NCBI RefSeq assembly: GCF_003334255.1
Contig: NZ_QOWU01000001.1
Strand: one strand, 5' to 3'
Length of the DNA: 64,000 nt
Source of the DNA: Escherichia coli
GTDB taxonomy: Bacteria; Pseudomonadota; Gammaproteobacteria; Enterobacterales; Enterobacteriaceae
The stretch's first letter is position 1. Every line of letters begins with the position of its first letter. The notes below the pieces were generated by a model. That model searched no databases. It saw nothing but the letters and a program-made list of their open reading frames with translations, and had not been told where the DNA came from. The position numbers and the translations under genes are program-made. This document shows positions 11,563 through 12,221 of the stretch, piece after piece.

Positions 11563-12221
11563 ACTTAACTCCACTGTCACACTTAACTCCCTTTCCCTTA
11601 TTGGAATGCAGAGAAATAATCCTGAAGAATATGATTTATCATGCATATAAAATAAGAAAAAGCAAAATGAGTAAAATTCGGAAAACATAAAGATACGGGT
11701 TCTGATAAAAACAGAATCCATTGCCGTGGAATGAGTCATTTACCACAGCATAATAATCCATAATGTTTTTGTTGCGAAAACAATCTAATCATAACTACCG
11801 CGAATACTCAATCATCTACAAAATGGATTAAATGTGCTTATTTAATAATTAATTTATATATTTAATGCATTAATTCTTAACATTAATTGATCAATAATAT
11901 TCACCAAATCAATATCAAAAAAAATCGCAAAACATATAATTCAATACAAATCATCAGGATAGGTTTTGCAACGCGTGCATTTTGTCCCCTTTTTCCTCGT
12001 TGATTAGATGCAAAAATTTATGCTGAAATATGTCAACCGATGAAAAGCGTCGGTAGTTAAGCAGAAATTAATATCGCTTACTTTAACCACCGCAGCACAA
12101 TTAGCTAATTTTACGGATGCAGAACTCACGCTGGCGGGACGTTTTTATTGCGTCAGGGTTGACATCCGTTTTTGTATCCAGTAACTCTAAAAGCATATCG
12201 CATTCATCTGGAGCTGATTTA
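11563..12221. promoter_or_regulatory. AT-rich leuO / leuLABCD divergent control region
   Basis: 659-bp intergenic region with extreme AT tracts (e.g. 11820-11960 ATTAATTTATATATTTAATGCATTAATT...); known H-NS-silenced divergent promoter region in E. coli and Salmonella. Confidence 0.6.

Follow-up and report, generated by a model that had tools for sequence, protein, structure and literature searches.

The interval at positions 11563-12221 of the window (the whole stretch of DNA that was analysed, 64,000 nucleotides in length) is bounded by the start codons of two divergently oriented genes, leuO on the minus strand and leuL on the plus strand, which enclose exactly 659 bp; leuA starts further downstream, at 12401. 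The window matches E. coli K-12 at 100%, and the locus is base-identical, as the reverse complement, to positions 83400-85800 of MG1655 (the MG1655 coordinate equals 95930 minus the window coordinate). With this identity, and with matching gene flanks, the naming of the interval as the leuO-leuL gap in a previous sequence-only reading of this DNA was right. Its claim that this is the largest intergenic region holds as well: in the RefSeq annotation of a K-12 strain, on which our ranking is based, the leuO-leuL gap leads the 64-kb window, followed by the mraZ-cra gap (601 bp) and the fixA-caiT gap (471 bp). In the curated MG1655 record, which includes small open reading frame (sORF) screens, no feature is annotated inside the gap. 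The elements considered in this report are the following.

10618-11562, minus strand: leuO coding sequence as annotated (314 aa), start codon at 11562
11553-11588, minus strand: tandem 18-bp repeat holding both leuO Shine-Dalgarno-plus-start modules, found in a repeat search
11563-11580, minus strand: six in-frame codons, GTG ACA GTG GAG TTA AGT, upstream of the leuO ATG, read from the sequence
11563-12221, no strand: leuO-leuL divergent regulatory spacer (659 bp, 32.9% GC)
11568-11596, minus strand: leuO ribosome-binding region, a conserved block in the 32-sequence alignment
11607-12032, no strand: promoter island 83898_426 leuL/leuO (MG1655 83898-84323; PMC3661553, Table 1)
11628-11662, minus strand: most conserved non-coding block, CTTTTTCTTATTTTATATGCATGATAAATCATATT (conservation 0.74-0.84 in 32 sequences)
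11653-11660, minus strand: TTTTCTTA, a second motif match to wwTTCykA and competing candidate for the BglJ-RcsB site
11678-11685, minus strand: TTTTCCGA, match to the BglJ-RcsB core wwTTCykA, inside the conserved block 11670-11692
11750-11778, minus strand: sole sigma-70 consensus match in the gap, TTCGCA-17-TATTAT, weakly conserved
11801-11960, no strand: AT core (20.6% GC), putative H-NS/StpA nucleation and silencer segment, with H-NS binding taken from the literature
11848-11866 and 11869-11887, no strand: two 7-N5-7 near-palindromes, candidates for the LeuO site I core (architecture from PMC6698644)
11854-11865 and 11862-11873, no strand: predicted SlyA sites (PMC5797941)
12093-12108, no strand: conserved block CAGCACAATTAGCTAA, nearly invariant across genera
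12099-12110, no strand: perfect 12-bp palindrome AATTAGCTAATT, overlapping the conserved block CAGCACAATTAGCTAA
12156-12200, plus strand: leuLABCD promoter block of the alignment; its -35 element TTGACA (12159-12164) hardly varies, and the -10/start region downstream of it is conserved
12208-12357, plus strand: leucine operon leader/attenuator RNA (RF00512; 145.8 bits against a gathering score of 50)
12222-12308, plus strand: leuL leader peptide as annotated (28 aa, four consecutive Leu codons)

The GC content of the spacer (32.9%) is far below that of the whole window (52.9%). Among all 63,342 windows of 659 bp, the one with the lowest GC content (11599-12257; 32.8%, z = -4.6) nearly coincides with the gap, and the lowest of the 63,901 windows of 100 bp (15% GC, z = -5.6) is found at 11827-11926. 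An AT content so far above background is expected of H-NS/StpA-silenced DNA. The longest pure A/T run of the window spans 29 bp (11838-11866). AT-richness is unevenly distributed across the gap, with 20.6% GC at 11801-11960 and 32-42% in the flanks. The extreme AT-richness that had been claimed for the interval is therefore borne out, and the segment 11815-11965, described as long A/T runs, is indeed AT-rich (19.9% GC, 80% A+T) without being a run in the literal sense. The exact H-NS high-affinity motif TCGATAAATT was absent. An inverted repeat with 70% complementarity (11774-11800 and 12051-12077) was judged to be a chance match in AT-rich DNA and was set aside. Haughn and colleagues are said to have remarked in 1986 on a conserved A+T content upstream of leuABCD. 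Two other gaps in the window are likewise AT-rich: the divergent fixA-caiT gap (53528-53998; 471 bp, about 31% GC), which ranks second among the large gaps in AT content and carries a pure A/T run of 21 bp at 53862-53882, and the ilvI-leuO gap, with 29.5% GC over 200 bp (10396-10595).

To compare the spacer among Enterobacteriaceae, we collected 80 loci by a LeuO search, one per species and ranging from Escherichia to Atlantibacter and Siccibacter, and aligned 32 representatives for phylogenetic footprints. The leuO and leuA genes are divergent in all 79 loci in which both are present; the contig of the 80th ends before leuA. The distance between the leuO and leuA ATG codons has a median of 813 bp (range 747-941, standard deviation 21), and the leuO-leuL gap itself has a family median of 634 bp (about 570-760 bp). 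GC contents of the spacers are 35-46%, compared to 47-56% for the surrounding 7-kb loci, and in each of the 80 species the GC content falls to a 100-bp minimum of 11-27%, whose offset from leuO is similar throughout. Within this frame, the alignment revealed sharply bounded conserved blocks (11568-11596, 11628-11662, 11670-11692, 12093-12108 and 12156-12200) plus short motifs in the AT core. These footprints coincide with expected promoter and factor-site positions; outside of them, conservation is low and indels are frequent. Since layout, length and AT minimum are conserved in 80 species, the spacer is ancestral and length-constrained and not recently acquired DNA.

The usual reading of promoter islands would make the AT-rich stretch a remnant of horizontally acquired DNA, and the study that lists them ties most islands to foreign genes and has the leuO-leuL locus scoring in some of its foreign-DNA columns (PMC3661553, Table 1). 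Against this stands the presence of the spacer in all 80 species, between the same core genes and with a similar length and a similar offset of the AT minimum, as well as the near-invariance of several blocks within it, so that we rate foreign origin as exceedingly unlikely. Instead, we are highly confident that this stretch of E. coli K-12 is a divergent regulatory spacer of ancestral origin, with leuO on one side and the leuLABCD operon on the other. Its conserved length fits a role as silencer and insulator, keeping a regulator gene, which has to remain silent, apart from a housekeeping operon, which has to remain active.

Individual genomes deviate from the common layout. In E. coli 23CRST017, the AT core is interrupted by an IS1 element, flanked by a 9-bp target duplication at 11868-11876, and in E. 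coli FDAARGOS_943 an IS1 element replaces leuO and most of the spacer. A single match over at least 80% of the query (the gap plus its gene flanks) was lacking in 30 of 5400 matching genomes. The longest leuO-leuA distance, 941 bp, is that of Klebsiella indica, which carries an insertion of about 150 bp in the AT core that is normal in GC content and partly palindromic; it may be a small repeat element.

The leuO-leuL element is already known and has been extensively characterised. In E. coli, H-NS and StpA silence leuO, whose two promoters, the distal P1 and the proximal P2, are both de-repressed in hns stpA mutants; the gene is also subject to autoregulation by LeuO (PMC5025477, PMC3950696). 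P2 is activated by BglJ-RcsB from a site with the core motif wwTTCykA, the centre of which lies 57 bp upstream of the P2 start (PMC3950696). LeuO site I has a palindromic core of two 7-bp halves spaced by 5 bp (PMC6698644), and binding of LeuO at the leuLABCD promoter region is modulated by 2-isopropylmalate (PMC12494820). SlyA bound in vitro, in electrophoretic mobility shift assays, to a 344-bp fragment whose primers correspond to window positions 11563-11906, and in the same study leuO counted as bound by H-NS in three ChIP data sets (G, K and O; PMC5797941, Table 2). The promoter island 83898_426 belongs to a published list of 78, in which it carries the mark of H-NS association (PMC3661553). 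Our simple sigma-70 consensus scan found one site in the gap compared to 3.4 +/- 1.5 in shuffled sequences, and so crude a test does not reproduce the promoter-island character; the published islands were defined by a different scoring program, PlatProm. The promoter relay from ilvIH via leuO to leu-500 has been demonstrated in Salmonella Typhimurium (PMC4264507, PMC6797219, PMC10981669); a defined H-NS nucleation site lies upstream of leuO in that organism, and transcription of an upstream cassette relieves silencing, in line with the relay model (PMC6797219, PMC10981669). When the interval was described from its sequence as a known H-NS-silenced, promoter-relay region, the H-NS part was therefore correct for E. 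coli (PMC5025477, PMC3950696, PMC5797941, PMC3661553), while the evidence for the relay is from Salmonella and not from E. coli.

On the leuO side, the conserved block 11628-11662 includes an ATATG-N10-CATAT palindrome (11629-11648), which resembles a LysR-type transcriptional regulator (LTTR) box, and a -10-like CATATT (11633-11628). Judged from the published distance between the BglJ-RcsB site and P2 (PMC3950696), this block probably overlaps the core of the proximal promoter. If TTTTCCGA were the BglJ-RcsB site, P2 would start near 11621-11625 and CATATT would serve as its -10 element; TTTTCTTA competes for the same role. The palindrome is not obviously a mapped LeuO site, because the published LeuO sites are said to be more than 100 bp away from the BglJ-RcsB site. 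The block 11628-11662 is unique in the window, and further copies of the two most conserved blocks were not found there, except for a reverse-strand match with three mismatches that overlaps a block's own palindrome. The TTCGCA-17-TATTAT sequence (11778-11750) is a candidate for the distal promoter P1.

On the leuL side, the palindrome AATTAGCTAATT precedes the approximate start of leuL transcription by about 90 bp. About 50 bp separate the CAGCACAATTAGCTAA block from the leuL -35 element; this distance is conserved, while the intervening sequence is not. The block loosely resembles the consensus sequences of Lrp and SlyA, and we found no transcription factor to which it has been assigned. Publications on control of leuLABCD by Lrp, when searched, yielded nothing that accounts for a palindrome at about -90. 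The Leu leader, well above its gathering score, extends into the interval by its first 14 nucleotides only. The locus does not conform to a classical LysR-type divergent promoter, in which promoters overlap within about 100-150 bp and share a T-N11-A box: 659 bp lie between the start codons of leuO and leuL, and more than 450 bp between the conserved promoter blocks. LTTR-like palindromes are present in the gap.

A GTG at 11580-11578 is in frame, 18 nucleotides upstream of the annotated leuO ATG, and its Shine-Dalgarno sequence plus spacer, GGAGTTAAGT, is identical to that of the annotated start; both belong to the 18-bp tandem duplication, which is ancient. Either GTG or ATG is kept at the -18 position, behind AAAGGGAG, in about 73 of 80 species; in the Kluyvera/Pseudocitrobacter clade and in Kosakonia oryzendophytica the downstream ATG is missing, which leaves the -18 start as the only one in that clade. 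Public E. coli LeuO records hold the 320-aa form on 101 contigs and the 314-aa form on at least 1000. The six additional codons showed no excess of third-position substitutions, and their conservation may reflect a role in translation initiation rather than in coding. We regard it as possible, and on balance doubtful, that LeuO synthesis begins wholly or partly at this GTG (yielding a protein of 320 aa or two isoforms) and, separately, that AATTAGCTAATT is the site of a leuLABCD regulator. The leuO frame is open further upstream, to an ATG at 11739 (10618-11739, minus strand, 373 aa); this extension is poorly conserved and rich in indels and was rejected as the real N-terminus.

Because of its size and composition, the gap had also been considered likely to harbour small ORFs or RNAs that are missing from annotation. 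For small ORFs, we assessed all those of at least eight codons that start in the gap, on both strands (25 in total), for conservation of start and length in 31 other genera. None of the 25 combined a ribosome-binding site with cross-genus conservation and third-position bias. The strongest candidate for a real small protein gene is a 19-codon ORF on the plus strand (11631-11690), antisense to the leuO promoter region and alone among the 25 in staying open in most genera, which retains its start codon in 22 of 31 other genera and a similar length in 20 of 31, and which displays a slight excess of third-position variability (0.160/0.178/0.253 for the three codon positions); the detection of YabR, a 14-aa protein, in the neighbouring ilvI-leuO gap (PMC6001520) gives such a gene a local precedent. 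That excess is weak, however, compared to the first 20 codons of leuO (0.28/0.25/0.47), and the two conserved ends of the ORF are themselves conserved DNA blocks, namely the palindrome and the RcsB-type box. The middle suffers radical replacements (SKMS, REIR, RVRI, ERELF), no Shine-Dalgarno sequence precedes the start, the scan found no promoter-like site on the plus strand, and the ORF is absent from the curated MG1655 annotation, sORF screens included. From its non-coding substitution pattern and the missing Shine-Dalgarno sequence, we judged this ORF to be a by-product of the conserved DNA blocks; the remaining 24 are less conserved still, and a small protein gene in the gap is exceedingly unlikely. 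Among the latter, a 14-codon ORF on the leuO strand (11642-11598) was rejected: its ATG is kept in 28 of 31 genera through the conserved block, after which the sequence diverges by indels. The tagged YabR protein (14 aa) maps to 10419-10463, in the ilvI-leuO gap, and no such protein maps to the leuO-leuL gap.

An unannotated stable small RNA, or a structured element in the leuO 5' UTR, is very unlikely as well. The length of the gap leaves room for one, and RNA polymerase binding and short oligonucleotide products have been reported for promoter islands in general (PMC3661553). Yet our scan found no intrinsic-terminator-like site inside the gap, RNAalifold returned zero conserved pairs for the 5' UTR in 22 species, and the sequence outside the footprint blocks is poorly conserved and subject to frequent indels. 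In Rfam searches at the gathering threshold and at E<=1, the Leu leader was the only credible hit, the weak ones representing the attenuator hairpin or microRNA-model noise (12036-12107). Neither a promoter with a terminator, nor covariation, nor membership in a known family thus marks an RNA here. Elsewhere in the window, a hit to naRNA4 (RF02564) was found in the araA-araD gap at 29171-29236, with 60.2 bits barely above its gathering score of 59.5. The suggestion of small ORFs or RNAs hence finds no support in ORF conservation, Rfam, RNAalifold, the terminator and promoter scan, or the MG1655 annotation, and a hidden gene or RNA in the leuO-leuL gap is not supported. The large size and the AT content are functional properties of a silencer and insulator and not signs of hidden genes.

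The composition of the regulatory spacer, its order of elements and its conservation are shown by this analysis, while the functional steps come from published work. Read from right to left, the spacer begins with the promoter of leuLABCD and the first part of the Leu attenuator, followed by the conserved palindrome about 90 bp upstream. Further to the left lie the core of about 160 bp with 80% A+T, and then the probable distal and proximal leuO promoters with the candidate BglJ-RcsB site. The left end is formed by a short leuO 5' UTR that closes in two tandem ribosome-binding-site/start modules. According to the literature, a filament of H-NS and StpA forms from nucleation in the AT core, extends across the promoters of leuO and keeps the gene off in the laboratory. 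[quoted passage not shown] The filament is destabilised by negative supercoils that arise from divergent transcription nearby, which is the basis of the promoter relay in Salmonella, and its loosening couples ilvIH, leuO and leuLABCD, the relay proper being a Salmonella finding. Control of the leuLABCD operon itself is exerted, in this published picture, mainly by the downstream leucine attenuator.

The leuO-leuL region is already established as a textbook model for H-NS silencing, counter-silencing and the coupling of neighbouring promoters through supercoiling. Our comparison adds the family-wide conservation of the spacer size and of the position of the AT core, the list of footprint blocks, and the ambiguity of the leuO start. 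None of these three alters the established picture, and the earlier judgement that nothing unexpected is visible stands.

The closest known system is the ilvIH-leuO-leuABCD relay region of Salmonella Typhimurium, an orthologous locus that also possesses an AT-rich H-NS silencer (Fang and Wu, 1998; Chen et al., 2001, 2005; cited in PMC4264507, PMC6797219, PMC10981669). In our sample, both S. enterica subspecies share the gene order, a leuO-ATG to leuA-ATG distance of 820-827 bp, the AT core and the conserved blocks, while per-column identity of the AT core sequence between genera amounts to only about 35-60%. Salmonella is the organism in which the relay, the boundaries of the silencer and the LeuO boundary sites have been mapped, whereas control by BglJ-RcsB was described for E. 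coli. The E. coli leuO map of the Schnetz laboratory (P1, P2, the BglJ-RcsB site and LeuO sites I and II) concerns identical DNA; we infer the element positions given here.

Most promoter islands (Shavkunov, 2009; Panyukov and Ozoline, 2013, PMC3661553) accompany horizontally acquired genes, whereas the leuO-leuL island is located between conserved core genes. Its position is conserved across the family, and it has no excess of -35/-10 matches in a plain scan. With bgl, proU, cas and hilD, the region shares AT-rich nucleation, a spreading filament, and relief by antagonists or nearby transcription (PMC5025477, PMC10981669). It differs from these in that the silenced gene itself encodes an antagonist, LeuO, and in that its silencer separates the silenced gene from a biosynthetic operon controlled by attenuation.
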